Positions 3,366 through 48,822 of a stretch of 64,000 bases of DNA are shown here, piece after piece. Below the pieces are notes generated by a model. That model searched no databases, was not told where the DNA came from, and was given only the letters and a program-made list of their open reading frames with translations. Source of the stretch: Patescibacteria group bacterium (GTDB taxonomy: Bacteria > Patescibacteriota > Minisyncoccia > Phycocordibacterales > PALSA-1337); the NCBI GenBank assembly GCA_024654575.1, contig JANLHG010000020.1:55991-119990 (forward strand), in the 5' to 3' direction. Numbering within the stretch: position 1 is the first letter of the stretch; the number at the start of each line of letters is the position of its first letter. Made by a program: the position numbers and the translations under genes.

Positions 3366-3519
3366 TTTCTGTTTTAAAAGTGAGGGACCAAAAAAAATTC
3401 CGCAAAAAATTACAGAAAATGGGATTGTAGTTTTTAATAATGAGATGTATTATTAAAGAGTTAGTAAAATTGAATATAGTAATCTAAATCAGTGAGTAAT
3501 CGCTGACATGATGAAAAGT

Positions 3520-3587: not shown

Positions 3588-3641
3588 TGGAGAACCGAAA
3601 GGAACTCGCTTAATGTGGTAGGTTTTTTGCGTGTAGAAATT

Positions 3642-4570: not shown

Positions 4571-4578
4571 TATAAAAT

Positions 4579-5157
4579 ATGGAAGATTCTATAAATTCAT
4601 TTCTTGGTAGTCACAGATTACTAGTTATATTAGTGGGAGGATTTATTATTATAGGACCTTTTGTAATTCCGTCTATAAAAGATTATTTTTCTTCAGATAG
4701 TAAGTTAAGACGTAAAAAAAGTCGAGAAAAAAGAAACTACGAACTAAAACAACAAATACAGGAGAAACTAATGCTTACTAAAGAAACTGAAAACAGAAGA
4801 AAAATAGAGCGACAAAAGATACAAGAACAAAGACAAAGAATAAAGGATGGGGAACACCAAAAATACCTTGATCTGAGAAAGCAAATCGAGAAAATGCCGA
4901 TTTATCAGAGATGGAAACAAGAAATAATGAACAAGTGTGGAAGCAAGTGTCAGATGTGTGGATCTAGTAATAATCTACAAGTTCATCACCTTGATTCGTT
5001 CTATTCAATCATAAAGCAGTATAATATTACCTCAATAGAAAAAGCTTTTGAATGTAAACAACTGTGGAATGTCGATAATGGAGAAATCCTTTGTAAAAAC
5101 TGTCACGATAAAATGGAAAGTTCAATTAATAGGCAGACTTTAATGTATAATACGTAA
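4579..5157 (+). CDS. membrane-anchored HNH endonuclease domain protein
   Basis: N-terminal TM helix, Lys/Arg/Glu-rich coiled-coil region, C-terminal CQMCGSSNNLQVHHLDSF...NGEILCKNCHDK (C-x2-C...HH...N...C-x2-C-H HNH signature). Confidence 0.6.
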   Translation: MEDSINSFLGSHRLLVILVGGFIIIGPFVIPSIKDYFSSDSKLRRKKSREKRNYELKQQIQEKLMLTKETENRRKIERQKIQEQRQRIKDGEHQKYLDLRKQIEKMPIYQRWKQEIMNKCGSKCQMCGSSNNLQVHHLDSFYSIIKQYNITSIEKAFECKQLWNVDNGEILCKNCHDKMESSINRQTLMYNT

Positions 5158-11981: not shown

Positions 11982-14482
11982 AGTTTAGCTAGGGTGTCTT
12001 TAGTCTTTTGTTCATAAATCTCGATCAGTTTTTTATTACCTTCGACGAGAGTACGCTCCGATTCAATACGTTCCACGATTTGTTTTTGAATTCCGAGAGG
12101 TGGAAGAGGAATTTCAAAGCTAGAAACTTGGGCCAAAGATAAATTACTTTGAGCAACGCCCACTTTCAAACCAAGAATTTGGTTCTGAATCATATCTGAT
12201 CTTAAAACTTGTTCGAGGTATTTTGAATTTAGTTCTTTTTTTGGTGAAATTATTGCAAGTGCTTGGTTAGTATTGGCAGGTAATACAGAAGAATCTACCA
12301 AAGCAACTCGTCCAAGAGCGCCGGCGATTGAAAACAAGACATCATTTTCTTCCAACTGAGATCGTTTTAGAGATTCGTTACATTTCTGATTTATATGGGC
12401 AAATTTCTTCTTGATAAAATATCCATCATTATCAATTGATTCTATTTTAATAAAGTTAATTCCACTTTCTTGAAACTCAAATCCATTTGTGGTGGGAGTT
12501 GTCCCTTTTGTTACTCTGTTTGATACTTCTTCTAATTTCACCTTCTTCCACGAAGGATCAATTACTATGATTGGCTTCCAACTTGAAATGATTTGCTTAG
12601 CGCCGGCGATGATGTTTTGGTAGCCGTCTAGTTCAGCGACAATTTGCTGTTGGATTTCTAATGGCGGAATAGGAATTTTTTGATTTGCAATAGTTACATG
12701 CCCTAAATGCTTTTGAATCCCGCCCTTCATTTGCTGTTGTAATAAACCTTGGAATAAATCACTCTCCAGAATATTAAAGAGATATTTTTGATCCACCTTG
12801 TTTTTATCAAAAGAAATTCTAAATAAATTATTGCTTAATATCCCTGGAACAGCCATAAAAGCCCTGCCTGGTGTGCCGGTATTTGCCATAACAAGGTCTT
12901 CAACAGTGACTTCCTTGGTTGCATATATATCTTTAACATAAATTGATTTATCCTCGCCTTTAAAATCTTGTATATATAAATACCTTTTGTAACCACTTCT
13001 AAATTCATTTAACTGCTTTTCTTTAGGTATTTGTACACCCTGAGTAAATTCACAAACATCCCCCAACCTAACTATTGGCCATTTGGCATTGGTGTAATCT
13101 GTTGCTATGCGATAGCGATCTCCAGAAAGATTGTAGTCGCCAGATTCAGTAATCTTTTCTTTTTTCACTAACCAAGCAAAAAAACTACCGTCAGATATAA
13201 GTTGATTTTTTGTTCCCGTTTCAATAGCAATTTTCTGTGCTTTAAGAACATCAAGAGCTGCACCATCATCAGTTAAATCATTTATATGACTATCAGGAAG
13301 TGGTCGTCGACGAGCACCTAAATCAAAACCATCACTTTCAACTTTAATAAATAATATCTCATCTGTTTTCTTTGCTATCTCATTATCAAAAAATAGAATA
13401 CTGGTCTTTACTCCTGCATAAGGATTAAATACACCTTGTGGTAAAGAGACAACAGCATAGAGTCCATCTTCTACAAGATTCTTACGAAGTTGCTTATGTG
13501 CTGTACCGGACTGAAAAATAATACCTTCGGGAACAATAATACCTGCTCGGCCTTGAGGCCTTAGATGGTTCATTATGTAATCCACAAATAACACTTCGGA
13601 CCGGCTAGACTGAATACTAAACTTACTATGGGTGCTAACCCCGCCTTTTGGCGACATAAATGGGGGGTTGGCGAGAATTACAGAGAATTTGTCGCCCCAA
13701 CGTTCATCCATAGAGAGCGTGTCATATTGAAATATTTTTGGATTCTTGAATTGGTGTAGATACATATTGACTTGAGCTATACGGACCATTCCAGGGTCTA
13801 TGTCGTAGCCTTCAAAATTACCCATCAAGTTTTTACGCTGATCAGGGGTCAGAGGTTTTTCCTTTTTCTTTGGATCATTTTTACCGTCGTGTTGCTCGAG
13901 TATGTGTTTGTAGGCACTCACCAAGAATCCTCCAGTACCGCAGGCAGGGTCCAATACTTTGTCTTCCTGTGTCGGATCTACTACATCCACCATAAAATCA
14001 ATAATATGGCGTGGGGTGCGGAATTGTCCCGCATCGCCTTGAGATGACATGATAGAGAGCAGATATTCGTAGGCATTACCCAATTCTTCGGGGTGTGAAT
14101 AATCAAAGTAATTAATTTCCTTCAAAAATAAGCCTAGCACTTCAGGGCTTCGATACGGCAAAAATGCGGACTTAAAAATCTCACGAAAAAGTTGTGGAAG
14201 TTGTTTTGATTCAGAAAACTTTATAAGGGCTTCACTATAGATATTCATTCGCTCTTGATTGCCTATACGAGTATCAGCAAGACGAGTCCACGCATACTGC
14301 TCCAAGTCGCCTACAAAGAACGAGGGATCTCCACCCTGCTTAATCGCAGACTGGTCCATATCATCCATAAACTTGTAGATAAGAGCATTGGTGATCTGAT
14401 CTATTTGAGAAGTTGGATTTGGGACCACGCCGACAAGGACTTGGCGAGCGGCGTCTATATGTCTTTTTGTTTCGGTGTTCAT
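11969..14482 (-). CDS. hsdM/hsdS: Type I restriction-modification fused HsdM (N6-adenine MTase) - HsdS (specificity, two TRDs) polypeptide
   Basis: DPACGTGGFL (motif I), NPPF (motif IV); C-terminal half has two target-recognition domains with conserved spacers IPIPPLEIQQQIV and IPLPPLGIQKQIV; single 837-aa ORF. Confidence 0.85.
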   Translation of the reverse strand: MNTETKRHIDAARQVLVGVVPNPTSQIDQITNALIYKFMDDMDQSAIKQGGDPSFFVGDLEQYAWTRLADTRIGNQERMNIYSEALIKFSESKQLPQLFREIFKSAFLPYRSPEVLGLFLKEINYFDYSHPEELGNAYEYLLSIMSSQGDAGQFRTPRHIIDFMVDVVDPTQEDKVLDPACGTGGFLVSAYKHILEQHDGKNDPKKKEKPLTPDQRKNLMGNFEGYDIDPGMVRIAQVNMYLHQFKNPKIFQYDTLSMDERWGDKFSVILANPPFMSPKGGVSTHSKFSIQSSRSEVLFVDYIMNHLRPQGRAGIIVPEGIIFQSGTAHKQLRKNLVEDGLYAVVSLPQGVFNPYAGVKTSILFFDNEIAKKTDEILFIKVESDGFDLGARRRPLPDSHINDLTDDGAALDVLKAQKIAIETGTKNQLISDGSFFAWLVKKEKITESGDYNLSGDRYRIATDYTNAKWPIVRLGDVCEFTQGVQIPKEKQLNEFRSGYKRYLYIQDFKGEDKSIYVKDIYATKEVTVEDLVMANTGTPGRAFMAVPGILSNNLFRISFDKNKVDQKYLFNILESDLFQGLLQQQMKGGIQKHLGHVTIANQKIPIPPLEIQQQIVAELDGYQNIIAGAKQIISSWKPIIVIDPSWKKVKLEEVSNRVTKGTTPTTNGFEFQESGINFIKIESIDNDGYFIKKKFAHINQKCNESLKRSQLEENDVLFSIAGALGRVALVDSSVLPANTNQALAIISPKKELNSKYLEQVLRSDMIQNQILGLKVGVAQSNLSLAQVSSFEIPLPPLGIQKQIVERIESERTLVEGNKKLIEIYEQKTKDTLAKLWEE

Positions 14483-14486
14483 AGTT

Positions 14487-14936
14487 TTACATTATTCCTT
14501 TAAATTGTTCTTTTGTCTGTCCTATACTTTCACTGGCATTTTTCCCATCAGCCGAATATAATTCCTTCCAATCATATTCTCTAAAATTACTTTTCTTTTT
14601 CCACGATGAATATTCGTCATAAGAAATAGGGGGTTGTGGAGAATTACCATTTAGGCTAATCAGTGGAGTTTCTGGTTCAATCTTTTTAAGATACGCTACC
14701 GCATCTTCTCTTTTTGAAAAATGATTTATTGTAAAAAGAGGGTAACGATTACAATTCCTATATGTTGCAACGCACCATATAAAATCAGTTGGCGGTTGCT
14801 CATGATAGATCTTTGTCCAAACGGCTCCATCAGCGTTAGGTTCTATTTCAACTGTCCCTTTACACAAATACAAGACAAAAATTCTGTCATCAAAATAATT
14901 CTGTCCTTGAAATTCAATTGTGTTTAGGTGATTCAT
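14487..14936 (-). CDS. hypothetical protein inserted between hsdR and hsdMS
   Basis: ORF 149 aa, 2-4 nt spacing to neighbours. Confidence 0.4.
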   Translation of the reverse strand: MNHLNTIEFQGQNYFDDRIFVLYLCKGTVEIEPNADGAVWTKIYHEQPPTDFIWCVATYRNCNRYPLFTINHFSKREDAVAYLKKIEPETPLISLNGNSPQPPISYDEYSSWKKKSNFREYDWKELYSADGKNASESIGQTKEQFKGIM

Positions 14937-14939
14937 ATT

Positions 14940-17507
14940 TTAATTCATAAAAGTGTTAAGAGACACATAATCTTTTACATATGTAGGGACTGTAGTCTTG
15001 AAGCCATTGAGTCTCTGATATTCTTCGAAATCAAATGAGGCGCAAAAATTAAGCTGTGCTAATTGCTTAGTCTCAATAATCTCTCGAACTTGCGGATCTA
15101 CTATATATGCTTTGAAAAAGCTTTTAACTGGCGCATAGTGCTCTTGATCTACTGTATTTACTTCCGTGAATTTACTCCATTCTGATTCAAGTAACTCATC
15201 TTTGGATTCAAAATTACTTTTCTGTCCAAAAGCGACCTGTAGAAATTCACGAATAGTAATGCGACGATCAACATTAAAAGTTTTTCTAATTCCTTGTAGA
15301 TTAAGAAAGTGATTTGGTTTGTCGAAAATGTTGGTTTTAGTATAGTCTTCAGCTGCTGCTACGTCTCCATTATTCCAAAGGTTCTTTAACGTTTCGTTGG
15401 CAAGCACATCTTCTTCTACAGCACGCTTGAAGCCTTCGCGGTCAATACGCATACCTTCGGAGCCAATATGTTTTTCTGAAATTGTAGCAAGCTCATCCTG
15501 TGTAGCTAAATCTATTGGGCCTTTGAAAATATTAGTGCCATCTTCGTCAACGAATATATCTGAACCACCGGAATCTTTACCAGTTGTTGTATCAGTTTCT
15601 TTTATCTTCTTAATCTTCGGAAGTTTAATCTTTTCGTCATATTTAAATTCATTTTCAAAATATTCACAAGTAGCAAAAAAATCAAAGAATTTGAAATGTT
15701 CTTTATGTTTTGTGATAGTTTCTTTTGTTGCATAATCAATATATTCAAATTGATATTTTCTTGTGCCTCTTCCTTTAATTTGCACAAACTCCGCAGGGCT
15801 AAACACTGGACGCATCAGTGCTAAGTTTAAAATATCTTGACAGTCATAACCTGTAGTCATCATTCCAACAGTAACCGCTATGCGACTTTTACTAGAATCA
15901 TAACCCTCAGGACTTTTAACTTTGCCATTAAGCATATTATTAGAGAAGTTAATGGTCATTTGTTGAGCATTTTGGACCAAAGAAGTCACTTGCACGGCAA
16001 AATTTGATTCACTGTATTGTTCTGGCCATTTTTCAAAAGCCAGTTTGTTTAATATATTAGTTATTCTTGAAGCATGCTTTTGAGACACACAGAAAACAAT
16101 TGATTTTCCAAACAAGTCCAAATTATATTTTTTAGCAACAGGATCAAAGAGTCCGTTATCTATAAACGCTTTACACATTGCGATATTAGTTTCTTCGTTA
16201 AAGAATTTTCTTTCGTAATGACGTTCATTAAACACTTCGTTGATTGTCTCTCCTTGCTCTGTGGTGGAATGGACCGCATAACCATCTTCTGAGAGAAGTT
16301 CTGTGGTAATATCTGTGCGAGCGTCTACTACTATAGGATTTATAAGAAAACCATCTTTAACACCTGAAAGTAAATCATAGCTGAATGTTGGTTTACCTGA
16401 CTCGCATCCGAATGTCTTATATGTATCTAATAACTGTCTTCGTTCAAACTCTCTCTGTGTATCCGCACCTTCGCCATCAAATCCTTTGAGATAGTTTTTT
16501 GGCGTTGCGGTAAGTCCTAATTTATAGCCCACAAAGTATTCAAATACCGCACGACTGTTGCCACCAATGGACCTATGACTTTCATCACTGATAGTCAATT
16601 CAAAATCTGTAGGCGAAAATTCTTTTTTATACCTATCACCCGCAAGAAATGTCTGAATAGTAGAAACCACAATTTGAGCATTACGCCATGAATCACGGCT
16701 ATCTTTGTAGATAACACTAGTGTAATCCTTTCCTAAATATTGTTTGAAAGCTTTTTGTGCTTGTTCCTCAAGCTCTATGCGATCGACTAGAAATAGGATA
16801 CGACGAGCATTACCTGATTTAAGAAATAATTTTATGACTGCGGCAGAAATAAGCGTTTTACCAGTCCCAGTAGCCATTTCAAATAAGAATCTATTTTTAT
16901 TTTCAAATGCAGAAGATTGTAAACTTTTAATTGCCCCAACTTGATATGGACGCAATTGTTTAAGGTTATTATTATGTAGAAATTCTCGTTTCTTTGATTC
17001 GTCTTTAAAATCAGGATCATTAGCATAGCTAGGCATTTGCGATTCAATAATATAGTTTTCGTCTACTTTTGTACTAGCTAGTTCTGAAGGATTAGGAATA
17101 TATTTTTCATATTGTGTAATAGATTCTTGTGTTGGAAAACGGGAAATAGTATCAGGATTGCCATGTTTTGTATCCCATAAATAATGAATGTTGCCATTGG
17201 ATAATATAACGAATCGAGCATTTACAGTACGAGCATAATTTTTAGCTTGATCTTTAGCCGAAAGTGGATCGATCGATTCTTTCTTTGCCTCTACTACAAC
17301 AAGAGCCCTGCCGTCTTTATCTAAAAGAAGAAAATCAATAAATCCGTGCGTCTCTTGTTCAAAGTCGTCTCCAAGTTCTGAATACTTTACTCCTGGCTCA
17401 AGTTCAATATTAGCTTTTCCATTTTTATCATCTTCAAAACGCCATCCTGATTCTTCAAGCAGTTTGTTTATCTTAATACGAGCCGATGCTTCTTTTAATT
17501 TCATCAT
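14940..17507 (-). CDS. hsdR: Type I restriction enzyme R subunit (PD-(D/E)xK nuclease + SF2 helicase)
   Basis: N-terminal FIDFLLLD...VVVEAK nuclease motif; MATGTGKT Walker A; DESH; TATP. Confidence 0.85.
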   Translation of the reverse strand: MMKLKEASARIKINKLLEESGWRFEDDKNGKANIELEPGVKYSELGDDFEQETHGFIDFLLLDKDGRALVVVEAKKESIDPLSAKDQAKNYARTVNARFVILSNGNIHYLWDTKHGNPDTISRFPTQESITQYEKYIPNPSELASTKVDENYIIESQMPSYANDPDFKDESKKREFLHNNNLKQLRPYQVGAIKSLQSSAFENKNRFLFEMATGTGKTLISAAVIKLFLKSGNARRILFLVDRIELEEQAQKAFKQYLGKDYTSVIYKDSRDSWRNAQIVVSTIQTFLAGDRYKKEFSPTDFELTISDESHRSIGGNSRAVFEYFVGYKLGLTATPKNYLKGFDGEGADTQREFERRQLLDTYKTFGCESGKPTFSYDLLSGVKDGFLINPIVVDARTDITTELLSEDGYAVHSTTEQGETINEVFNERHYERKFFNEETNIAMCKAFIDNGLFDPVAKKYNLDLFGKSIVFCVSQKHASRITNILNKLAFEKWPEQYSESNFAVQVTSLVQNAQQMTINFSNNMLNGKVKSPEGYDSSKSRIAVTVGMMTTGYDCQDILNLALMRPVFSPAEFVQIKGRGTRKYQFEYIDYATKETITKHKEHFKFFDFFATCEYFENEFKYDEKIKLPKIKKIKETDTTTGKDSGGSDIFVDEDGTNIFKGPIDLATQDELATISEKHIGSEGMRIDREGFKRAVEEDVLANETLKNLWNNGDVAAAEDYTKTNIFDKPNHFLNLQGIRKTFNVDRRITIREFLQVAFGQKSNFESKDELLESEWSKFTEVNTVDQEHYAPVKSFFKAYIVDPQVREIIETKQLAQLNFCASFDFEEYQRLNGFKTTVPTYVKDYVSLNTFMN

Positions 17508-18222: not shown

Positions 18223-18476
18223 TGGGCAGAGGAAGTAATATAAAGCATGATTGGCTCTATAACTTAATGGATAAAGCAACAGATTAGTAATCTGTATCCA
18301 TCACAGGATGATTTATTCTTAAGTCATGATCTCGGTTCGAATCCGAGTAGAGCCGTTTTACTTCCTCTGTCCACTCTTCAAATTTTATAAAGAACGAAAA
18401 ATTACCCCATTTGGGGTGTGAACTAATCTTTTTATTAGAGTAGAATCATGTTTCATTTTTATCACCATATTAAATA
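18223..18476 (+). repeat. Repeated tRNA cassette copy 1: 16-bp inverted repeats (TGGGCAGAGGAAGTAA / TTACTTCCTCTGTCCA) flanking the tRNA-like gene plus ~100-bp conserved tail with CCCCATTTGGGG hairpin
   Basis: second copy at 38076-38313 with the same IRs and >90% identical tail but a different embedded tRNA-like sequence. Confidence 0.55.
18253..18355 (+). tRNA. atypical tRNA-like gene (103 nt): canonical acceptor, D arm (G18G19), anticodon arm (loop UUAGUAA) and T arm (GGTTCGAATCC), but a 35-nt insertion at the variable-arm position
   Basis: manual fold: GGCTCTA/TAGAGCC acceptor, ACAGA-TTAGTAA-TCTGT anticodon arm, CTCGG-TTCGAAT-CCGAG T arm; identity unresolved. Confidence 0.45.
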
Positions 18477-23631: not shown

Positions 23632-26178
23632 ATGAGAACAACAAAAATGACGGTTTTGGTGGTATTGGTAGTCGCTTTGTTTGCTTTAATTCAAACGAAA
23701 GCTCAAGTTCAAACGGCACCTGAAAACATGGTGCTGATTCCAGCGGGAGAGTTTCAGATGGGGGATATGATTGGTGATGGGTATTATGACGAAATTCCTG
23801 TTCATATTGTGTATACGGATTCTTTCTATATAGATAAATACGAAGTAACCGATTCACTTTGGAATGAGGTATATAGATGGGCAATTAGCAACGGATATGA
23901 TTTTGACAATCTAGGTTCATCTCGTATATCTTTTGGACGGATTTTTTCTGATAGTAAAGGTCCAAATTATCCAGTAACTGAAATAAATTGGTTTGATGCA
24001 ATAAAATGGTGTAATGCTCGAAGTGAAAAAGAGGGACGAATTCCAGCTTATTACACAGATAGAGTTCACACGATTGTGTATCATACCGGTCAAAATAAGG
24101 AAATAACATCTTATTATGTAAAGTGGAAAGCAGGCTATCGTTTACCTACAGAAGCTGAATGGGAAAAAACAGCACGTGGCGGTGTTAGTGGACACCGTTT
24201 TTCATGGGCGGATACAGATACAATTACGCATGATAGAGCTAATTATTCTAGTGATTGGGCTTTTACTTATGATTATGATGTGAGTCTTACACGAGGTTTT
24301 CATCCAGCTTATTATGATTACAGTCTTTATAAACCAATAATGTACCTTAGCCCAGTAGGATCATTCGCGCCAAATAATTATGGACTATATGATACAACTG
24401 GTAATGTATTTGAATGGTGTTGGGATAGAGCAATTACTTATGAATCTTCAACTTATGATGATCCACAAGGAAATATCGTTTCGTCATATAGATTTCGTGC
24501 ATTACGCGGTGGAAGTTGGAGTAGTGATGCAAATTGGAACAGAGTGTCTTTCCGTAACGATAAATCGGCAACAAATACATTTTATCAAAGATCATATGAT
24601 CTTGGTTTCCGGACAGTTTTAGGCTCAACGACTGCGATTGCAAAAACCCCAGAATGGAAACAAGCGATTGAAATTCAACCTAAACAGCCGACTTATTCTG
24701 AAGCGCCGAAAAAAGAAGACACGAAAGATAGTTTGGTTTTGGTCACACATGGCTGGCAACCGGCATTTAGGCCTGTTGATATAGCTTGGGTGGAAGAAAT
24801 GACAAATGCTATCACTTCCTACCTCACCGCTAATCAGCTAGATAATTGGCAAGTTAGTGCATATCGGTGGGTGGAGAAGGCATCAACATTTGATCCTGAA
24901 AGTGTTCTTCGTGCAGGAGAACAAGAGGGTAAAAATCTTGGTCAAAGTATAGCGACTAAAGAATGGAAAAATGTCCATCTGATTGCTCACAGTGCTGGGT
25001 CAGCATTAATTCAATCGGCTACAGAAAAAATTAAAGACAAGTGGACGAATACAATCGTTCATCTGACCTTTCTAGATCCTTATGTCGGAGTAACTTACAA
25101 TGGAAGAAAAAATTATGGTAGTTATGCTGATTGGGCAGAAAATTACTTCACCCGTGATTTAAAAACAAGTTGGGAAATATTTTCGTTCACAGAAGGTGCT
25201 TTGAAAAATGCATATAATGTGGATGTAACTTTTCTAGACAAAACAAAAACTACGGGAGATGTTTATTTTTCTTCTTCTGGTACTGTTATTCAACAATGTC
25301 AGGAAGCAACAACCAAACACTCTTGGCCGTATGAGTTTTATACTCAAACGATTTTGCCAAACACTGTTGGTAACTCAAAAGGCTTCGGCTTCCCTCTTTC
25401 AAAAGAAGGCGGAGGTTGGGACTTTGCAAAAAGTCAGTACGCAAAAGGCAACATATCAGAAGTTCTTGGAACTCCAGATCCCTCTTGCTTACCTACTCTC
25501 TTTCAAACAACACCGGCATATTTAGGCCAAATAAGTTTTTCTACAACTTCTTCCACGACATCAAGTCCAACGGGAGTAGTTGAAAAAAATGACTTTGGTT
25601 TCAATCTTGTTAGTTTGATTAAAGAAAGGAGACTTCAATCCTTAAAAGCTGTAGCTCCTTCAGAAGGACCAGCTTGGTTGGCGACAACGGTCTTAATTAC
25701 GAACGCGGTAAATCTTGTTTCTTTTGATTCTCGTTTCTTGAACGATGCAAAAGCAGAAGGTTTACTTTCAGTTTATTGGGATACGAATGTTATCGGGACT
25801 ATAGATGAGCGAGTAGCGCCATCTGAAATGCATCAATACACATTTTCTGTCCCAAGAATTGCGAATGGTATTCAAACTATCGGATTTCGTTTAGATTCTT
25901 TTTCTGATATGACTTCTAGCGTGACTGTCACAAACGTTTCGCTGGGGTTTATTGGAGTGAAAGAACCGTTTTTCTTATCGTCCGCTGGTTCTCAAACAGA
26001 TGGAGTGCAAATGCTTCAGTTAACTGGTCAAAAGGATTTTAACTACACAGTTGAAACTTCTACAGACCTTATTAATTGGGAAGTGTTTGCTATTTTGGTC
26101 AATACGGATGGTGTCGTGAAGTTTAATTCGGCACCACCTAGCAAAACAGCTCATTTTTATAGAGCTGTGGCACAATAG
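23632..26178 (+). CDS. secreted multidomain protein: signal peptide + formylglycine-generating-enzyme (FGE)-sulfatase domain + alpha/beta-hydrolase-like domain
   Basis: N-terminal hydrophobic signal; YRLPTEAEWEKTARGG (FGE-sulfatase signature); later LVTHGW...IAHSAGS lipase-like motif. Confidence 0.6.
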   Translation: MRTTKMTVLVVLVVALFALIQTKAQVQTAPENMVLIPAGEFQMGDMIGDGYYDEIPVHIVYTDSFYIDKYEVTDSLWNEVYRWAISNGYDFDNLGSSRISFGRIFSDSKGPNYPVTEINWFDAIKWCNARSEKEGRIPAYYTDRVHTIVYHTGQNKEITSYYVKWKAGYRLPTEAEWEKTARGGVSGHRFSWADTDTITHDRANYSSDWAFTYDYDVSLTRGFHPAYYDYSLYKPIMYLSPVGSFAPNNYGLYDTTGNVFEWCWDRAITYESSTYDDPQGNIVSSYRFRALRGGSWSSDANWNRVSFRNDKSATNTFYQRSYDLGFRTVLGSTTAIAKTPEWKQAIEIQPKQPTYSEAPKKEDTKDSLVLVTHGWQPAFRPVDIAWVEEMTNAITSYLTANQLDNWQVSAYRWVEKASTFDPESVLRAGEQEGKNLGQSIATKEWKNVHLIAHSAGSALIQSATEKIKDKWTNTIVHLTFLDPYVGVTYNGRKNYGSYADWAENYFTRDLKTSWEIFSFTEGALKNAYNVDVTFLDKTKTTGDVYFSSSGTVIQQCQEATTKHSWPYEFYTQTILPNTVGNSKGFGFPLSKEGGGWDFAKSQYAKGNISEVLGTPDPSCLPTLFQTTPAYLGQISFSTTSSTTSSPTGVVEKNDFGFNLVSLIKERRLQSLKAVAPSEGPAWLATTVLITNAVNLVSFDSRFLNDAKAEGLLSVYWDTNVIGTIDERVAPSEMHQYTFSVPRIANGIQTIGFRLDSFSDMTSSVTVTNVSLGFIGVKEPFFLSSAGSQTDGVQMLQLTGQKDFNYTVETSTDLINWEVFAILVNTDGVVKFNSAPPSKTAHFYRAVAQ

Positions 26179-27235: not shown

Positions 27236-27289
27236 GCTTTTCTAATCGCTCCCCTTTCCTTTTTCGCGAATAGCCCGTTTAACGATGGG

Positions 27290-27583
27290 CTATTTCTTTT
27301 TTATATAACCGACAATAGCACCTATTAGTGAACCGATGAGGAACCAGATTACTAATTCGATAGAAAAAATTAGTAGAGATGAGAAAGAGTAAGATGATGG
27401 AAAAGATAATAAAATATTAATAATTGGTATTGATGGAATACTAAATAATAAACATTCTAAACCCCAAGAATCAGATGATGTAAATAAATATAAACATGAA
27501 GTACTTAAAATGTAAGAAACTATTAACACCCCACCCCCAATCACTCCTCCTTTTAACCAATATGGCATTTTTTTATTATTCAT
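27290..27583 (-). CDS. small membrane protein, paralog 2
   Basis: shares N- and C-terminal ~20 aa and 95-bp downstream repeat with paralog 1. Confidence 0.5.
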   Translation of the reverse strand: MNNKKMPYWLKGGVIGGGVLIVSYILSTSCLYLFTSSDSWGLECLLFSIPSIPIINILLSFPSSYSFSSLLIFSIELVIWFLIGSLIGAIVGYIKKK

Positions 27584-29401: not shown

Positions 29402-30370
29402 TTAATTTAATTTCTTTATGTTTATTAATGCATCTTGTGGTTTATTACCATATCTATACTGTATATTTAATTCAATATAATCCCCCTTTTGTACTTCTAT
29501 TTTAGGATTAATGGCAATAAAGATTTCACTATTCAAAAATGTTGTATCGTCTTTTTTTATTACTTTTTCGCTAGGCATAATAACTTCACTATAAATCATT
29601 AAACTATTCAATAATCCACCACTTTCTATTAAAATAGGAATGGTTTTATTTATAAAAATATTTGACTTATTTGTAAAATCTATTTCATCATACTCATAAG
29701 GTGAAGACAAAATGCGGTGAGATATTTTTATATTTCTTTCTGGAGATGTTACAAAAAGTTCTTTATTATGTGGATTATTAGGAAAAGCAACTTGAGAGAA
29801 AGAAACGATTGAACGAATTTTTTTAGGTATACAAATTCCATTAGTATTTAGATATTTGATCAAATTATTCATTATTTGCACTTGATATTCAAAAAACATT
29901 CCAGTATATATATTTTCACTTACAATAACATCCACATTATTTGGTGGTATGAATGTAATTGCGTCATGTAGAAAAAATTCTACTGATGAATTAGGTATAA
30001 ATTTCTTTTTCTCTAAATGATTTTTAATCTCTTGTGCTAATTTAAAAACATCAGGATTTATTTCACATCCATACACTTTCGCACCCAATGAAGCTGCGTA
30101 AAAAGACAAAATTCCTGTGCCAATTCCAGCTTCCAAAACAACATTCCCTTTAGATACTTTTTTATATATTTCATCAATAAAAAAATTTGTTCTTTTTGTA
30201 TCATAAACACAATGAACAGCATCAAGAATATTTAATCCAAACCTTGAAATATTCGACTGATTAAATCTATCACTTTCAGAAATTAAAAAACTTTTTTCAA
30301 GTTCATCGATTAACCCATGTTTTCTACAAAACGTCATTATTTCTTGATAAATATCCATCTTTTGGTTCAT
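29402..30370 (-). CDS. PRMT-like (protein arginine methyltransferase fold) class I SAM-dependent methyltransferase
   Basis: VVLEAGIGTGILSFYAASLGAKVYGCEINP (motif I/post-I) and VDVIVSENIYTGMFFEYQVQIMNNLIKYLNTNGICIP aligning with PRMT1 VDIIISEWMGYCLFYESML...PDGLIFP double-E loop. Confidence 0.65.
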   Translation of the reverse strand: MNQKMDIYQEIMTFCRKHGLIDELEKSFLISESDRFNQSNISRFGLNILDAVHCVYDTKRTNFFIDEIYKKVSKGNVVLEAGIGTGILSFYAASLGAKVYGCEINPDVFKLAQEIKNHLEKKKFIPNSSVEFFLHDAITFIPPNNVDVIVSENIYTGMFFEYQVQIMNNLIKYLNTNGICIPKKIRSIVSFSQVAFPNNPHNKELFVTSPERNIKISHRILSSPYEYDEIDFTNKSNIFINKTIPILIESGGLLNSLMIYSEVIMPSEKVIKKDDTTFLNSEIFIAINPKIEVQKGDYIELNIQYRYGNKPQDALINIKKLN

Positions 30371-30460
30371 AATATATCTAATATAGCATGGATGAAATTA
30401 GATTCATTGATTTGGTGGTAATTTATATAAAATTATGAGATTATTATACCATACACTAGA

Positions 30461-30841
30461 ATGATTATGATTAAGACAAAACTTAGTAAGAGTAAGGTAC
30501 ATGGTATGGGTTTATATGCTGACCAATTTATACCAAAAGGAACTATTACTTGGATTTATTCTGATAAATATGATCAGTCATTTACAAAAAAAGATGTTGA
30601 AAAAATGGATGATATAACTAAGAAACAATTTTTCAAGTACGCTTATTGGGATAAAACTATAAAGAAATACGTTTTATGTTTTGATGATCAGAGATTTATT
30701 AATCATTCATCGAAGCCAAATATATTGTCAACTCAAAAAAAAGATGTTGCTAGCAGAGACATAAAAAAAGGAGAAGAACTTCTTTGTGATTATACAAAAT
30801 TTGATGAGAATTATTTTGATAATATAGGTTTTAAACATTAA
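30461..30841 (+). CDS. minimal SET-domain protein (putative protein lysine methyltransferase)
   Basis: GMGLYADQFIPKG, RFINHSSKPNI, GEELLCDY match SET signatures; 126 aa. Confidence 0.75.
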   Translation: MIMIKTKLSKSKVHGMGLYADQFIPKGTITWIYSDKYDQSFTKKDVEKMDDITKKQFFKYAYWDKTIKKYVLCFDDQRFINHSSKPNILSTQKKDVASRDIKKGEELLCDYTKFDENYFDNIGFKH

Positions 30842-30856
30842 CATAATCAAAAAACC

Positions 30857-31267
30857 ATGCTAAAAGTTAAAACAAAATTACAGATGAGTCATATTCATGG
30901 AATCGGGCTTTTTGCTGACCAATTTATACCAAAAGGAACAATCACATGGGAATATGATCCTCATTTTGACATAAGTTACACTGAACAAGAATTAAAAAAA
31001 TTACCAAAATGGACTAAAGAGCAATTTTTGAAATATTCTTATTTTGATGAAAAAATTAAAAAATATATTTTATGTGCAGATGATCAAAGATTTATTAATC
31101 ACTCTATAGACCCTAATATATTATCTACACCTAATTTTGATAAAGCGGGAAAAGACATTCAACCTGGAGAAGAACTAGTCTGCAATTATAAAGACTACGA
31201 ATCAGATTGGTTTGAACGCCGAGGAATAGATGAAAAAGATTTTACCTATATTGTAAAAGGAAAATAA
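30857..31267 (+). CDS. minimal SET-domain protein, tandem paralog
   Basis: GIGLFADQFIPKG, RFINHSIDPNI, GEELVCNY; 136 aa. Confidence 0.75.
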   Translation: MLKVKTKLQMSHIHGIGLFADQFIPKGTITWEYDPHFDISYTEQELKKLPKWTKEQFLKYSYFDEKIKKYILCADDQRFINHSIDPNILSTPNFDKAGKDIQPGEELVCNYKDYESDWFERRGIDEKDFTYIVKGK

Positions 31268-31299: not shown

Positions 31300-31899
31300 T
31301 TATCGTTTTTGTTTTCGAAAAAGTAAAAATGTTATGTAACCATTTAGTGTGACAATATATACTTGGTACACACTTTCACTAAATGCCCACTCACTAATCG
31401 CAAATATGTTTATAATAGATGCAATAGTTGCTAACATCCACCCCCACCTACCTTCACTTTCAGGTCTTAATATTGATTTAATAACAGTTGGATATAATCC
31501 AACAAAATCACTAAGAAGATTGATTATGAGAATAACAAGCGTTGCTACACCAATCTTTAGATATATAAGTATCCCCCAAAGAATGATACTCGTTATGCTA
31601 ATTTTGAAACACAAGATATCGGTTTCAAAACTTTTTCTGTCACTTTTCTCTCCATATTTTATAGAGAATAAAGCGATGATTAAGGGGTTAATAACATAAG
31701 TTATTGGAATCCAGATTGTGTCTTTATTTTCGGATTTCATTTCCGTAAAATAACTCACCAAAATCATTCCACCAACAAATGTCATAATCCACCATGTTAC
31801 TTTGTTAGGTTTTGTATTACCTTTGAAAATACTGACTACATAAATAATAACGGAGAGAAATGAAATAATCCCCGCTATTTTACCAGCGTATTCGTTCAC
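31300..31899 (-). CDS. hypothetical polytopic membrane protein
   Basis: ORF 199 aa, multiple TM segments. Confidence 0.4.
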   Translation of the reverse strand: MNEYAGKIAGIISFLSVIIYVVSIFKGNTKPNKVTWWIMTFVGGMILVSYFTEMKSENKDTIWIPITYVINPLIIALFSIKYGEKSDRKSFETDILCFKISITSIILWGILIYLKIGVATLVILIINLLSDFVGLYPTVIKSILRPESEGRWGWMLATIASIINIFAISEWAFSESVYQVYIVTLNGYITFLLFRKQKR

Positions 31900-32079
31900 T
31901 TATTCCTCCTTGTTAAAGTTCAATTCGACTTGAATTATATCATATTTGACTTTCAGAGTCAATAATCGGGTAATCATGCACTATCATTGTCCTATAAAAT
32001 GTAAATACTATCGATAGACCAATGAGTACAAAAACTGTAATTATTAATATTTTTGATTTTTTGTCCATATATTTTTTAT

Positions 32080-34833: not shown

Positions 34834-35610
34834 TTATTTATTGTAATTTTGTATTCGTTTGTTTGCTAAATCCACATATTTTTTTTCTTTTTCGATTCCA
34901 ATCCAGTTTCTCTCAAGTGCCTTTGCGACAACAGCTGTCGTGCCACTTCCTAAAAATGGGTCAAGAATTAAATCACCTTTTTTACTAGAAGTTAAAATTA
35001 CTTGTTGAATAAGTTTTAATGGTTTTTGTGTGGGATGTGATTTTATTCCATTTTCATCTCGTAATCGTTCCTTACCTTTACATAAACCAAACACCCAGTC
35101 AGTATCTTTCATTTGTTTTCCACCGTTTATTTTTTTTAAGAAATCATTATTAAAAGTGTAATTTTTACAATTTTTATTTTTTACAGCCCAAATTAAAATT
35201 TCGTGATTATTTGTAAATCTTCTACCATTAAAATTTGGCATAGCATCAGTTTTGACCCAAATCACATCATTTAAAAACCATAACCCTAAGTCTTGCATAA
35301 TTTTACCAACTCGAAAAACATTATGGTACATACCCATTACCCAAATCGTTCCAGTTGGTTTCAATATTCTTTGACATTCTTTAATCCAATTACCTGTAAA
35401 AGTATCGTAATCTTCATAGCTTTCAAATTTATCCCATTCATCATTTACAGGAATTACTTCCGTTCCGTTTTCTCGTATAAGTTTTCTATTTTTCGGCAAT
35501 TGTAAATTATATGGTGGATCAGCAAAAATTAAATCAAAACTATTATCAGGAAATGTTTTTAATACCTCTAAACAATCACCATAAATTATGGTATTAACTA
35601 TTTTTTTCAT
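34834..35610 (-). CDS. beta-class DNA methyltransferase (N6-adenine or N4-cytosine)
   Basis: FADPPYN (motif IV) before SHPTQKP and LDPFLGSGTTAVVA (motif I): circularly permuted beta order. Confidence 0.8.
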   Translation of the reverse strand: MKKIVNTIIYGDCLEVLKTFPDNSFDLIFADPPYNLQLPKNRKLIRENGTEVIPVNDEWDKFESYEDYDTFTGNWIKECQRILKPTGTIWVMGMYHNVFRVGKIMQDLGLWFLNDVIWVKTDAMPNFNGRRFTNNHEILIWAVKNKNCKNYTFNNDFLKKINGGKQMKDTDWVFGLCKGKERLRDENGIKSHPTQKPLKLIQQVILTSSKKGDLILDPFLGSGTTAVVAKALERNWIGIEKEKKYVDLANKRIQNYNK

Positions 35611-35630
35611 AAAAATACAATAAAACCAAA

Positions 35631-36425
35631 CTATTCATCATATCTAATTTTTTTATATAGATTATCAAATATCTCAATTATTTCTTTATCTTCACTAACT
35701 TCTTTTAAGTAACCATCTAAATCTTCATATCTTATTGAAAAAAATTTATTAAATAAATCTGATCCACGACTTATATAATTCTTTTCTGGAACATAAATAT
35801 TACCTTTCATTCTTTTATAATTAAAGTAATATAGAATTGGTTTTAGATCATTAATATCATTTATTTTTAACTCTTTTACAAGACCTGCATAAGTCTTTAT
35901 GAATTTTCTATTAATATCTACAAACTTCCCTGTATCATGGTCATCATTATATTTAATTTCTAAATAATAATATTTTTTATCTTTTTTATCTTTAAATAAA
36001 CAATCTATATCATGTTTGTTTTCGATAAGATGTACTTTCTGTTTTTGTTCTCGGATAATATCATTTAAAAGTTTTTCAAATTTTTCTGTCAATTTATCAT
36101 CAGTATTATTTTGGCTATTTGATATAAACTTATCTATTATACTATCAGTATTTTCTGTTAAAGATAATTTAATATTCTTTTTACCAGAAAGATGTGGAAT
36201 TATTTCTAGATTTTTTTCTGACTCAACGATTTTATGTATTAATACTTCTATAAAATTACCAAATTGAATATTTAAAGATTGTAATAATCCACCAAAAACA
36301 CGATATTTAACGGGAACAAAATGTAACTTAACTTCGTGTTTTTTTGTTATTAAACCTATTTTATTTTTATTTGACGTATTATTTAGAAGTTCAATAACAG
36401 CGTCCTTTATTAATTTTTTAATCAT
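35631..36425 (-). CDS. putative Type II restriction endonuclease (no recognisable motif; positional inference)
   Basis: 264-aa ORF sandwiched between, and overlapping by 4 nt with, two MTase genes. Confidence 0.4.
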   Translation of the reverse strand: MIKKLIKDAVIELLNNTSNKNKIGLITKKHEVKLHFVPVKYRVFGGLLQSLNIQFGNFIEVLIHKIVESEKNLEIIPHLSGKKNIKLSLTENTDSIIDKFISNSQNNTDDKLTEKFEKLLNDIIREQKQKVHLIENKHDIDCLFKDKKDKKYYYLEIKYNDDHDTGKFVDINRKFIKTYAGLVKELKINDINDLKPILYYFNYKRMKGNIYVPEKNYISRGSDLFNKFFSIRYEDLDGYLKEVSEDKEIIEIFDNLYKKIRYDE

Positions 36426-37498
36426 ATTTTTAAATAAGTGTTTATATAATCCTGTCTTAAATCGTTGATCAGTACAAGTTGTCCTCTACGTTTAATATAC
36501 CAAAATGTCCAACCGTTATTTGTTTCTTTATTTAATAATCTAGCACTAACTTTATGAATTGATCCAATTTCCTCATTTGATGATAAGGTCGAATCTGCTA
36601 ATACTACCGCCTTTTTATCTCCATTCTTTAAATAAAGATTTTCACCAACATTAATTAAACCAGACTCAACTAAATTACCAAATGGAACTTTGGGATTTCT
36701 TGACTCAATCGGATATAGTAGTAGTTTTTCATCAATTAATTTAACTTTTTTTATTCTATCATTTGCTACTTTTATATAAAAATTCTCTTTTTCTATCCCT
36801 ATAAAATTTCTTCTCATTTTTTTTGCTACAGCTCCAGTTGTGCCACTTCCCATAAAAGGATCTAAAATTATATCTCCAATATTTGAAGTTGATAATATTA
36901 TTCTATAAAGTAAAGCTTCCGGTTTTTGAGTTGAATGAGCTTTATTTCCATTTACTTTTATTCTTTCTCCTCCACTACATATAGGTATGTACCAATCACT
37001 TCTCATTTGTTTATCATCGTTGAATGCTTTCATAGATCTATAGTGAAAAGTTGATTTAGACTTATCACTTTTTGATGCCAGAATCAACGTCTCTTGTGCA
37101 TTGTTAAATCTCGTACCTTTAAAATTAGGCATTGGATTAGTTTTAATCCAAATAATGTCATTCAATATCCAAAAACCAATGTCTTGCATAATTTTACCAA
37201 CTCGAAAAATATTATGATAACTACCAATAACCCAAATTGAACCATCTTTTTTTAAAACTCTTTTACATTCTAGTAACCAACTATAAGTAAACTTATCGTA
37301 GTCATCGAAAGAAGGAAATTTATCCCACTTATCATTTACTGCACTTACTTTAGTTTGATTGGGTCTATAAAGATCACCTTTTAGTTGTAAATTATATGGT
37401 GGATCAGCAAAAATAAGATCTACAGAATTTTCTGGTAATTTTTTAAGAGTTTCTATACAATCACCTTTTATTATTGTATTTAAATATTTCTTATCCAT
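36422..37498 (-). CDS. beta-class DNA methyltransferase with C-terminal extension
   Basis: FADPPYN, STQKP, LDPFMGSGTTGAVA; ~120-aa C-terminal extra domain. Confidence 0.8.
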   Translation of the reverse strand: MDKKYLNTIIKGDCIETLKKLPENSVDLIFADPPYNLQLKGDLYRPNQTKVSAVNDKWDKFPSFDDYDKFTYSWLLECKRVLKKDGSIWVIGSYHNIFRVGKIMQDIGFWILNDIIWIKTNPMPNFKGTRFNNAQETLILASKSDKSKSTFHYRSMKAFNDDKQMRSDWYIPICSGGERIKVNGNKAHSTQKPEALLYRIILSTSNIGDIILDPFMGSGTTGAVAKKMRRNFIGIEKENFYIKVANDRIKKVKLIDEKLLLYPIESRNPKVPFGNLVESGLINVGENLYLKNGDKKAVVLADSTLSSNEEIGSIHKVSARLLNKETNNGWTFWYIKRRGQLVLINDLRQDYINTYLKI

Positions 37499-38075: not shown

Positions 38076-38313
38076 TGGGCAGAGGAAGTAACACAAGTGA
38101 TTAGGATCTGTGATGAAATTGGTAGACATAATGATTTATCATATCATCGCCGTACAAGCATGCGAGTTCGAATCTCGCCAGATCCACAATTACTTCCTCT
38201 ATCCACTCTTCAAATTTTATAAAGAACGAAAAATTACACCATTTGGGGTGTGAACTAATCTTTTTATTAGAATAGAATCACGTTTCATTTTTATCACTAT
38301 TTTAAACAAACCG
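38076..38313 (+). repeat. Repeated tRNA cassette copy 2 (IRs at 38076-38091 and 38190-38205 plus conserved tail)
   Basis: see 18223-18476. Confidence 0.55.
38104..38186 (+). tRNA. tRNA-like gene (83 nt) with type II (Leu-like) architecture: 3-bp D stem, D-loop AAATTGGTAGA, 14-nt variable region; anticodon loop UUAUCAU
   Basis: GGATCTG/CAGATCC acceptor, ATGAT-TTATCAT-ATCAT anticodon arm, GCGAG-TTCGAAT-CTCGC T arm; anticodon identity ambiguous. Confidence 0.5.
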
Positions 38314-38885: not shown

Positions 38886-38957
38886 GCGCGCTTAGCTCAG
38901 TGGTAGAGCGACCCCTTGACGTGGGGTAGGCCGTGGGTTCAATCCCCTCAGCGCGCA
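38886..38957 (+). tRNA. tRNA-Val: tRNA-Val (anticodon GAC)
   Basis: GCGCGCT acceptor, GCTC-AGTGGTAGA-GAGC D arm, ACCCC-TTGACGT-GGGGT anticodon arm, GTGGG-TTCAATC-CCCTC T arm (one U-U mismatch). Confidence 0.85.
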
Positions 38958-39133
38958 CATTTATCTAACGACTTCTTGCAGTTTTGCAATACATCTCACG
39001 CAAACAGTTTGATTTTTTCGAGTTTTAATATATTTATTTCCACAAACACACACCAAAATCTCCGCGATAGTTTTTTTCTCTATCCATTTACCCATTTTTG
39101 AAAAAGGTTTTTGATGAATTGCCGGTTTCATAT

Positions 39134-47940: not shown

Positions 47941-48168
47941 TGGTTTTTCTCTGTTTGCCTCTTGCGAGGCGAGCCCGAAGGCACTTGTATCTAAAGGATA
48001 GCAAATACTGAGTAATAACACAAGTATTGTAAGATGGTAGCACTTTTTCGTCAGTAGTATGCGATCAACTTTCGAGATTGAATGTATAATCTCGGCTTCA
48101 CAGCAATGTGGAGCTTTTTTATTTTAAAGTTTGTAATCAAATTTGAGGGATGTTATACTTTACCAATC

Positions 48169-48822
48169 ATGAACGAAAATACACAAAATAATCAAACAGC
48201 AGAAACAAGAATTACGGAAATAAATGATGAATTTAAGAGAGGTTTTGCGTTTATAAAAAATTATGAAAAATCGGCATCATTTTTTGGTTCTGCTAGAACA
48301 AAAGAAGATTCTGATAACTATAAATTCGCTTATAAATTAGCAAAAAGAATTTCAGAAGAACTAAAATATACGATTGTGACTGGAGGTGGTCCTGGAATAA
48401 TGGAAGCAGCAAATAAAGGAGCTTTTGACTCTGGAGGTAATTCTCTTGGTATGACAATCAAACTTCCAAGAGAACAAGCTGTTAATCCTTACGTTCAAAA
48501 AAGTGAAGAGTTTTACTATTTTTTTGTCAGAAAAGTGATGCTCTCTTTTTCCGCTGAAGCTTACATTTTCTTTCCTGGAGGGTTTGGAACAATGGATGAA
48601 TTTTTTGAAATATTAACTCTAGTTCAAACACATAAAATTCCTCAAGTGCCTATTATTCTCGTAGGAAAAGAATATTGGGAACCGCTAGAAAATTATTTAA
48701 AACAACATCTCCTAGATGAACACAAAGCTATTGGAGTTAATGATTTAAAACTCTATACTATTACTGATGATGAAGAAGAAATTATGAAAATTGTCCGAGA
48801 AGCTCCAATTAGAAAAGAATAA
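48169..48822 (+). CDS. LOG family protein (cytokinin riboside 5'-monophosphate phosphoribohydrolase-like)
   Basis: TGGGPGIMEA and PGGFGTMDE motifs; start trimmed to MNENTQ. Confidence 0.75.
   Translation: MNENTQNNQTAETRITEINDEFKRGFAFIKNYEKSASFFGSARTKEDSDNYKFAYKLAKRISEELKYTIVTGGGPGIMEAANKGAFDSGGNSLGMTIKLPREQAVNPYVQKSEEFYYFFVRKVMLSFSAEAYIFFPGGFGTMDEFFEILTLVQTHKIPQVPIILVGKEYWEPLENYLKQHLLDEHKAIGVNDLKLYTITDDEEEIMKIVREAPIRKE

Follow-up and report, generated by a model that had tools for sequence, protein, structure and literature searches.

Several described systems resemble parts of a gene cluster that we analyzed in a 64,000-nucleotide stretch of contig JANLHG010000020.1 (hereafter, the window) from a Patescibacteria group bacterium. 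The cluster encodes an S-adenosylmethionine (SAM, also AdoMet)-dependent methyltransferase with the predicted fold of protein arginine methyltransferases (PRMTs), two small SET-domain proteins (SET1 and SET2), and an orphan membrane sensor histidine kinase, accompanied by a membrane protein (MEM199), a membrane peptide (PEP42), and a SpeD-family decarboxylase. Within the eukaryotic family (PRMT1 to PRMT9), the solved enzymes closest to the window methyltransferase are Trypanosoma brucei PRMT7 (TbPRMT7), PRMT3, PRMT2, and CARM1, with 15–20% identity. Unlike eukaryotic PRMTs, the window enzyme has no THW loop, no helix-turn-helix dimerization arm, and no Pfam PRMT_C domain, it carries an extra N-terminal helical module, and its genomic partner is a sensor kinase.

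The SET proteins can be compared with minimal SET proteins (Methanosarcina Go1-SET, chlamydial SET/NUE, and the SET region of LegAS4) and with the MLL-type core, with which SET1 and SET2 share the GxG, RFINHS, and GEELxxDY motifs, including the catalytic tyrosine. Like the minimal proteins, they are ~130 aa long and have no pre-SET or post-SET zinc modules. Unlike them, they occupy a fixed divergent position in a kinase-centered module, occur as tandem copies, and have no adjacent chromatin-protein gene.

Two further systems offer likenesses of logic or of chemistry. The resemblance to CheR/CheB adaptation would be one of logic only, in that the gene for a SAM-dependent methyltransferase accompanies those of a histidine kinase complex, the presumed target of the enzyme. 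CheR O-methylates glutamate and has another accessory domain, whereas the chemistry here would be N-methylation of arginine or lysine. Pfam and NCBIfam searches gave no MCP, CheW, CheB, or CheR match among the cluster proteins. The enzymes SznE and StzE methylate the guanidino nitrogen of free L-arginine with SAM, giving a product from which N-methylagmatine can arise by decarboxylation (PMC11705231, PMC12637814). These enzymes and the window methyltransferase are all bacterial and have guanidino chemistry in common (predicted for the window enzyme), a likeness of reaction. SznE and StzE belong to natural-product clusters, whereas the window gene lies in a signaling/polyamine-type module of a minimal genome. 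Within the literature that could be searched, nothing relevant was found on prokaryotic PRMT homologs, or on PRMT or SET proteins in the Candidate Phyla Radiation (CPR), and the coupling of such a methyltransferase to a novel sensor kinase module appears to be undescribed.

The methyltransferase and its prokaryotic family

A first-pass annotation, made from the sequence alone, had described a divergent cluster of one PRMT-like and two tandem SET-domain genes. All three open reading frames (ORFs) are present where it placed them, with lengths of 322, 126, and 136 aa. Searches of Pfam and NCBIfam with the 322-aa protein returned generic class I methyltransferase matches only; the Rossmann domain had weak PrmA-type Pfam matches. 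Against the Protein Data Bank (PDB), the ~58 best-matching distinct sequences were all PRMTs, in a match that spans motif I and the double-E loop. PRMT9 ranked first (E value of 5e-9), further matches were to PRMT7, PRMT3, PRMT8, CARM1, PRMT1, PRMT6, and PRMT2, and PrmA followed at 4e-3. A profile of 40 family sequences lowered the best E value to 3e-14 (TbPRMT7), with KsgA as the first non-PRMT at 1.5e-6. The AlphaFold model (predicted local distance difference test [pLDDT] of 90.6 and predicted template-modeling score [pTM] of 0.88) consists of a Rossmann domain and, C-terminal to it, an all-beta domain, a predicted beta-barrel that packs on the Rossmann domain. Foldseek searches with this model gave PRMTs for all of the top 50 matches, aligned over ~300–330 columns. 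Because the sequence-versus-PDB, profile-versus-PDB, and Foldseek tests agree, we group the protein with PRMTs rather than with rRNA or small-molecule methyltransferases. The motif resemblance on which the first-pass annotation had relied is far beyond chance, and it extends to the predicted fold, beta-barrel included.

Residues that define the PRMT active site are retained. Motif I (E80-A-G82-x-G84-T-G86), which aligns to PRMT motif I, and the post-I residue E103 are invariant or nearly so in the family. In the LxDxxR helix, which aligns to 'LNDTKRN' of PRMT9 and 'MNDEERN' of TbPRMT7, D57 is invariant and R60 is invariant in the clade and conserved in at least 90% of the wider family. The arginine of this helix pairs with the SAM carboxylate in PRMTs. 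The double-E loop keeps both of its glutamates (E152 and E161) without exception in 35 sequences, at identities down to 21%, and their spacing equals that in PRMT1 and PRMT9. The catalytic core is invariant or nearly so even in relatives that are 21–30% identical. An aminopropyltransferase using decarboxylated SAM, an idea raised by the SpeD-family neighbor, was set aside because R60, the predicted SAM-carboxylate-pairing arginine, is conserved.

Other hallmarks of eukaryotic PRMTs are missing. The THW loop is not present in the clade, where the corresponding segment reads T276-F-L-N280-x-D/E, or in short family forms, which have (L/M)N.P; THW was found in the outliers P0063 and P0064 only (P numbers denote family members). 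PRMT_C (PF22528) was not matched by the window protein or its family, whereas the outlier P0063 has a match. Residues 195–224 were modeled as coil and short strands, and the dimerization-arm insertion of P0063 and P0064 is missing. An N-terminal helical module (approximately residues 1–47) is specific to the clade. Sequence and predicted structure thus point to a guanidino-N-methyltransferase of the PRMT fold, and not to a canonical PRMT.

The window enzyme is one of a sizeable family of prokaryotic proteins. When 1.84 billion representatives were searched exhaustively with a profile, 146 clusters reached E ≤ 1e-30, and 1117 reached E ≤ 1e-10. The stricter threshold corresponds to ~122 bits, and solved PRMTs reach at most 56 bits with the same profile. 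The enzyme had been presented as a eukaryote-like methyltransferase of a type that is rare in bacteria; in the light of this family, it is no isolated import of a eukaryote-like kind. Some members are ~320 aa, like the window protein; many are 275–290 aa and are devoid of the N-terminal helical module, and others are longer. Three members (P0202, P0218, and P0253) are fused to a C-terminal domain of the NNMT/PNMT/TEMT type (PF01234). One of them, P0202, is encoded by an ORF at 1556–3406 (+) of locus L018 in a Patescibacteria metagenome-assembled genome (MAG) and keeps the clade-specific N-terminal module (L numbers denote loci). One bacterial groundwater contig does encode a canonical PRMT, complete with THW, PRMT_C, and a SEC-C motif. 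Where family members have been named, the names are "50S ribosomal protein L11 methyltransferase" or "predicted RNA methylase," and the family is usually misnamed "L11 methyltransferase." At another locus (L021), on a contig with 29% GC that also bears a Cas12f/TnpB-like gene, a 98-aa pyruvoyl-dependent arginine decarboxylase gene (PF01862; 2915–3211, −) is divergently adjacent to the gene for a distant PRMT-fold member of 518 aa, P0062 (3285–4841, +).

SET proteins, sensor kinase, and the conserved module

Both small proteins were matched by the Pfam SET family (PF00856) with 49.0 bits for SET1 and 50.5 bits for SET2, well above the gathering cut-off of 22.4, so the SET signatures reported for them are real. 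The two are 55% identical. In an alignment of 31 family members, G17, R78-F79-x-N81-H82, N87, E106, C109, and the catalytic Y111 are invariant and kept in both paralogs; the motifs GxG (G15/G17), R78-F79-I80-N81-H82, and G104-E105-E106-L107...Y111 are likewise invariant or nearly so and present in both. A family profile searched against PDB found SET-domain chains only (MLL1–4 and Legionella LegAS4). On these profile and alignment data, the predicted fold of SET1 and SET2 is the SET domain, with no assignment to any other fold.

The first-pass annotation had considered such folds rare in bacteria. More than 146 close homologs of this size (~131 aa), already annotated as SET proteins, are found in many Patescibacteria and in cyanobacteria (52–57% identity), and bacterial SET proteins have been well reviewed (PMC3980110). 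SET1 itself is 100% identical to an NCBI entry named 'SET domain-containing protein [Patescibacteria group bacterium]', and a neighboring membrane protein is also 100% identical to an NCBI protein from a "Patescibacteria group bacterium" MAG. Taken alone, the SET genes are nothing unusual and fall within a known kind. SET orthologs elsewhere mostly score better with SET2 than with SET1. The tandem pair recurs in L105, a relative that is 98% identical; only one copy is present in L106, which is 66% identical; the duplication is a lineage-specific detail. In Nostoc sp. (L102, 4688–5462, +), the gene for a 153-aa SET ortholog follows an SMR (PF00893) gene by 1 bp and precedes a GDT1-family gene; this SMR–SET pairing is absent in Microcoleus (L108). 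The cyanobacterial orthologs have no module partner adjacent.

Patescibacteria are often episymbionts, and host proteins had been listed among the possible targets. Export of the PRMT-like and SET enzymes as effectors would have precedents in secreted SET proteins of Legionella (LegAS4/RomA) and Chlamydia (NUE) (PMC2904774, PMC3980110), and NCBIfam gave a weak, partial match to the LegAS4 SET region. That match reached 29 bits against a cut-off of 550, however, and no ankyrin or other effector domains were found. A check for signal peptides weakened the idea, as none of the three proteins has an N-terminal signal peptide or hydrophobic segment, for which reason we consider the methyltransferase and the SET proteins to be cytoplasmic. 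Moreover, their genes lie inside a kinase/decarboxylase/carrier module with no secretion genes nearby, and orthologous SET proteins occur in free-living cyanobacteria. We regard a role as secreted effectors as highly improbable.

The sensor kinase gene lies downstream of the methyltransferase gene on the same strand. Its catalytic residues are invariant (phospho-acceptor H335, N451/N455, D483-x-G-x-G, and G515-x-G-L). The input domain of ~300 aa is multi-transmembrane (TM), is better conserved than the kinase core, contains the invariant residues Y27-S28-H29, R78, D80, E93, and E150, and has no match in Pfam or PDB. A CheY/PhoB search found no response regulator or receiver domain in the window, where the kinase is thus an orphan. 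At other loci, the same search found response regulators in L007 (5 kb away), in the hybrid kinases of L012 and L014, and in L109, where a single-domain response regulator follows the orthologous kinase; no others were nearby. Directly downstream of the window kinase are a gene for a 97-aa 3-TM protein (27290–27583, −) and then a strong terminator-like hairpin (27268–27295). The 97-aa protein has no sequence homolog at the equivalent position in related loci, and L002 has an unrelated 111-aa ORF there.

Conservation of gene order was analyzed at 17 loci, each from a different genome. A metagenome scan with alignment A3 gave mostly motif-I-only matches to unrelated methyltransferases, and only ~23 methyltransferase loci were usable in all. 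The kinase homolog lies downstream of the methyltransferase on the same strand in 13 of the 17 genome loci and also in L022 and L023. Direct junctions between the two genes number 14 (12 genome loci plus L022 and L023), and 13 of these have a gap of at most 18 nt or an overlap of 1–4 nt. The short-form methyltransferases of L022 and L023 are ~26% identical to the window protein and are still followed by the same kinase family (E values of 1e-118 and 4e-86), at 4 nt or with an overlap. In L012 and L014, on contigs labeled Methanothrix (a label that is unverified), the methyltransferase is paired with a different, hybrid kinase.

The full set of MEM199, SET on the opposite strand, methyltransferase, and kinase is present in nine of the 17 genome loci. 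At every locus examined, SET is on the strand opposite to all other module genes, a layout that one would expect of a regulator more than of a pathway enzyme. Some clusters have no methyltransferase: L103 and L104, from other Patescibacteria, contain kinase, SET, MEM199, PEP42, and SpeD genes, and L109, from Komeilibacteria, contains the same genes in a different order, with the response regulator and SpeD co-directional behind the kinase. The flanks vary by locus (DnaJ/MFS/HAD, ProRS, or LCAT genes elsewhere and a PMT_2 glycosyltransferase in the window). Because membership survives both rearrangement and loss of members, we attribute the association to functional linkage and not just to inherited gene order; the co-occurrence of module genes without the methyltransferase and in a different order, while the flanks differ, argues for selection on this linkage. 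The kinase is the hub of the module, since it is found paired with the methyltransferase where SET is missing and clustered with SET where the methyltransferase is missing.

The trio, one PRMT-fold enzyme and two SET-domain proteins, is thus part of a larger conserved Patescibacteria module. The first-pass annotation had proposed a coordinated protein-methylation system of three genes sharing a 90-bp divergent promoter region. Functional linkage is borne out by synteny in the nine independent genomes and at further loci, but a self-contained three-gene system is not. Similarly, the AT-rich spacer is exactly 90 bp, but its promoter signal is at chance level: 28 promoter-like matches were found in the region and 33.9 were expected from shuffles.

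Linkage of this kind also bears on a housekeeping role, in which the methyltransferase and SET proteins would modify abundant conserved proteins (ribosomal proteins, EF-Tu, or nucleoid proteins) and the adjacent kinase would have no mechanistic meaning. Ribosomal and nucleoid proteins were among the targets suggested in the first-pass annotation. The partnerless cyanobacterial SET orthologs suit such a universally conserved substrate. The weak PrmA-type matches, six methyltransferase loci that have no kinase, and the methylation of chromatin proteins by archaeal and chlamydial SET proteins (PMC3980110) also fit. Against this, the module is kept through rearrangement and across 33–58% methyltransferase identity while its flanks change, and the methyltransferase and kinase genes have stop/start overlaps. 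The methyltransferase is also patchy even within Patescibacteria (missing from L103, L104, and L109), which would be unexpected of a housekeeping modifier. We consider this role improbable.

Three smaller genes complete the cluster. MEM199, present in nine of the 17 methyltransferase loci and in L103, L104, and L109, has no Pfam match, and PQ-loop/MtN3 remained unmatched even at E ≤ 10. Its AlphaFold 2 model, from a nine-sequence alignment, has seven helices (pLDDT of 80), and an internal repeat is marked by the motifs Y20..T29-x-P31..W36 and D131..P137-T138..K141..P146..E149. The predicted seven-helix bundle with its repeat would fit a PQ-loop, SWEET, or KDEL-receptor fold, and cystinosin, KDELR, and SWEET structures made up the top 15 Foldseek matches, with weak E values (0.05–0.3) and probabilities of 0.92–1.0. 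Unlike PQ-loop proteins, MEM199 has 'PT..K' or 'TKP' in place of 'PQ'. The model suggests a putative small-solute carrier or receptor. At three loci, a second, divergently oriented paralog of the kinase family is encoded directly upstream of MEM199 (L008, 5002–6759; L010, 5112–6788; L015, 4202–5896; all −); these second kinases show 25–41% input-domain identity, and two of the three have other residues in place of R78 and R302.

PEP42-like ORFs of 40–46 aa occupy the equivalent position at eight loci (L002, L003, L004, L005, L103, L104, L105, and L109; phmmer E values of 4e-8 to 4e-19). The SpeD homolog is present in the cluster at six of the 17 methyltransferase loci and in L103, L104, and L109. 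It scored 89 bits with Pfam and 75.2 bits with the NCBIfam AdoMetDC equivalog TIGR03330, just below the cut-off of 75.65. Its best PDB match was the A. aeolicus AdoMetDC (8e-10), and both the E-S-H processing motif and the proline of 'HTFP' are present. For CPR homologs of SpeD, experiments have demonstrated decarboxylation of ornithine or arginine (PMC10407285), and candidate substrates of the window protein are AdoMet, L-ornithine, and L-arginine. The coordinates of the cluster are given in Table 1.

Table 1. Genes and spacer of the kinase-centered cluster, with positions counted from the first nucleotide of the window
Feature	Position	Strand	Basis or remark
Orphan membrane sensor histidine kinase, 552 aa	27597..29255	−	Pfam HisKA 2.5e-16, HATPase_c 1.4e-25
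PRMT-fold SAM-dependent guanidino-N-methyltransferase (predicted), 322 aa	29402..30370	−	Prokaryotic variant; sequence, profile, and Foldseek
Divergent spacer, AT-rich, 90 bp	30371..30460		Between methyltransferase and SET1
SET1, minimal SET-domain protein, 126 aa	30461..30841	+	Pfam SET 9.2e-13; more diverged paralog
SET2, minimal SET-domain protein, 136 aa	30857..31267	+	Pfam SET 3e-13; ortholog-like copy
MEM199, seven-helix membrane protein, PQ-loop/KDEL-receptor/SWEET-like	31300..31899	−	Predicted fold
PEP42, 42-aa single-pass membrane peptide (MDKKSK...TM...YR.M..DYP)	31940..32068	−	Conserved ORF
SpeD-family class 1b pyruvoyl-dependent decarboxylase, 132 aa	32080..32478	−	Pfam AdoMet_dc 2.9e-25

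Candidate substrates of the methyltransferases

We infer, robustly in our view, that a guanidino-N-methyltransferase and one or two epsilon-amine (lysine-type) N-methyltransferases are functionally tied to the kinase and to the decarboxylase/carrier/peptide set. The substrate of these enzymes is a matter of more graded likelihood. We tentatively favor, at somewhat below an even chance, a protein of the signaling module as the substrate of the methyltransferase and the SET proteins. The PRMT-fold enzyme and SET would then be attached to an orphan membrane kinase with a novel multi-TM input domain. The PRMT-fold gene runs in the direction of the kinase gene, to which its translation is often coupled, and the residues of the enzyme that bind SAM and guanidinium in PRMTs are intact. 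Between them, the two methyltransferases would methylate arginine and lysine side chains, and the candidate target may be the kinase, its single-domain response regulator, or a membrane partner. Such methylation could tune signaling that concerns a cationic amine or polyamine, which would be made by the decarboxylase and moved by the putative MEM199 carrier. The functional parallel would be methylation adaptation in chemotaxis, with N-methylation carried out by PRMT and SET folds.

A protein substrate is favored for four reasons. The methyltransferase–kinase junctions are tight and sometimes overlapping, the methyltransferase–kinase pair persists alone, and the placement of SET is consistently divergent, as for a regulator. 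In addition, to our knowledge, all characterized SET enzymes and all PRMTs of the two-domain fold methylate proteins.

Several observations weigh against this preference. In the window, the gap between the methyltransferase and kinase genes is 146 nt and contains a promoter-like site, and six of the 23 methyltransferase loci have no nearby kinase. No kinase arginine is specific to methyltransferase-linked kinases, as R78 and R302 are also invariant in L103 and L104, which have no methyltransferase; the lysines that track the presence of SET (K246, K326, and K458) do so on the basis of only two divergent SET-less kinases, and this residue tracking pinpointed no target in the kinase. Both the THW loop and the dimerization arm, which the window enzyme does not have, are needed by eukaryotic PRMTs. 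The remaining counterpoints hint at small cationic molecules: the SpeD-family decarboxylase and the PQ-loop-like carrier in the module, the pyruvoyl-dependent arginine decarboxylase (PvlArgDC) beside the 518-aa family member, the family fusions to small-molecule N-methyltransferase domains of the NNMT/PNMT/TEMT type, and the SMR exporter gene that immediately precedes the SET ortholog in Nostoc.

These same observations are the core of a serious, if somewhat unlikely, alternative, in which the module would make, methylate, move, and sense a cationic amine (for example, arginine, agmatine, or a polyamine). The SpeD homolog would decarboxylate arginine, ornithine, or AdoMet, as its CPR homologs do with ornithine or arginine (PMC10407285), and the PRMT-fold enzyme would N-methylate the free guanidino group of arginine or agmatine. 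SET, or elsewhere the fused NNMT-like domain, would N-methylate the terminal amine, with the aminobutyl end of agmatine or putrescine mimicking lysine. MEM199 would transport the product or a precursor, and the kinase would sense one of them. Apart from the decarboxylase, PvlArgDC divergently adjoining P0062, the three fusions (P0202, P0218, and P0253), and the Nostoc SMR exporter gene 1 bp before SET, this pathway is consistent with the predicted membership of MEM199 in the fold class of cystinosin-type carriers, with the invariant acidic residues D80, E93, and E150 in the kinase input domain, and with the existence of bacterial guanidino methyltransferases for free arginine (SznE/StzE; PMC11705231, PMC12637814).

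Other evidence speaks against a small-molecule pathway. SET is always on the strand opposite to the putative pathway genes, and methyltransferase–kinase pairs occur with no decarboxylase, carrier, or SET nearby (L022, L023, L012, and L014). The SMR–SET pairing does not extend to Microcoleus, and the PvlArgDC neighbor is a single locus whose 98-aa product is possibly truncated. Neither agmatinase nor spermidine synthase is encoded in the window. Finally, no small-molecule substrate is known for any SET-domain enzyme.

A more specific proposal, which we consider unlikely in its entirety, takes in both substrate classes. The PRMT-fold family without arm or THW loop would have co-evolved with the sensor kinase as a two-gene unit that SET joined in Patescibacteria, for either (a) arginine and lysine N-methylation of the kinase complex or (b) N-methylation of both ends of a free amine, for example, agmatine.

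Wider window and biological meaning

The window is ordinary chromosome of low GC content (about 34%), with genes for DnaK, RpoA, AlaRS, TGT, ribonucleotide reductase, and restriction-modification. An Rfam scan found no riboswitch in it, its matches being two tRNAs and a LOOT RNA alone. The LOOT RNA (RF03000; 3481–3607, +) scored 57.2 bits against a gathering threshold of 46.4, overlaps the start of a 113-aa ORF (3558–3899), and lies just upstream of genes with no Pfam match (3905–5157). tRNA-Val(gac) at 38886–38958 is the only tRNA called by both Rfam and ARAGORN. A 103-nt tRNA (18253–18355, +) was called by Rfam and not by ARAGORN and possibly contains an intron or has a long arm, and an odd tRNA-Asp with anticodon 'atc' (38104–38187, +) was called by ARAGORN and not by Rfam.

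Two regions carry restriction-modification genes. A type I system (11969–17507, −) comprises an 837-aa fusion of N6_Mtase with two Methylase_S domains, a 149-aa ORF, and an 855-aa HsdR-type ResIII helicase. In the region 34834–37498 (−), a 264-aa ORF that has no Pfam match lies between genes for two N6_N4 DNA methylases, one of 258 aa and one of 358 aa that bears a RAMA domain at its C terminus; this is probably a type II/III restriction-modification cassette. An 848-aa protein (23632–26178, +) has an N-terminal FGE-sulfatase (formylglycine-generating-enzyme-like) domain, beyond which ~500 aa have no domain assignment. A LOG/'possible lysine decarboxylase' protein (PF03641, SLOG) is encoded at 48082–48822 (+) and is not linked to the module; members of the LOG family, despite the 'lysine decarboxylase' name, are usually nucleotide-processing enzymes.

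PRMTs are commonly seen as a eukaryotic signature, and here a sizeable, misannotated prokaryotic family retains the full catalytic core. Having neither arm nor THW loop, this family provides a minimal PRMT scaffold to work with, and it bears on how arginine methylation arose and on its roots in prokaryotes. The module is compact and experimentally tractable, in a group, the Patescibacteria, whose regulation and physiology are almost unknown. Were the kinase complex the substrate, this would be the first PRMT/SET-based adaptation or regulation of two-component signaling; were a free amine methylated at both ends, it would be the first small-molecule SET enzyme, together with new methylated polyamine-like metabolites in minimal-genome bacteria. 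Either substrate class would be new biology, whether as N-methylation control of two-component signaling or as methylated cationic amines.

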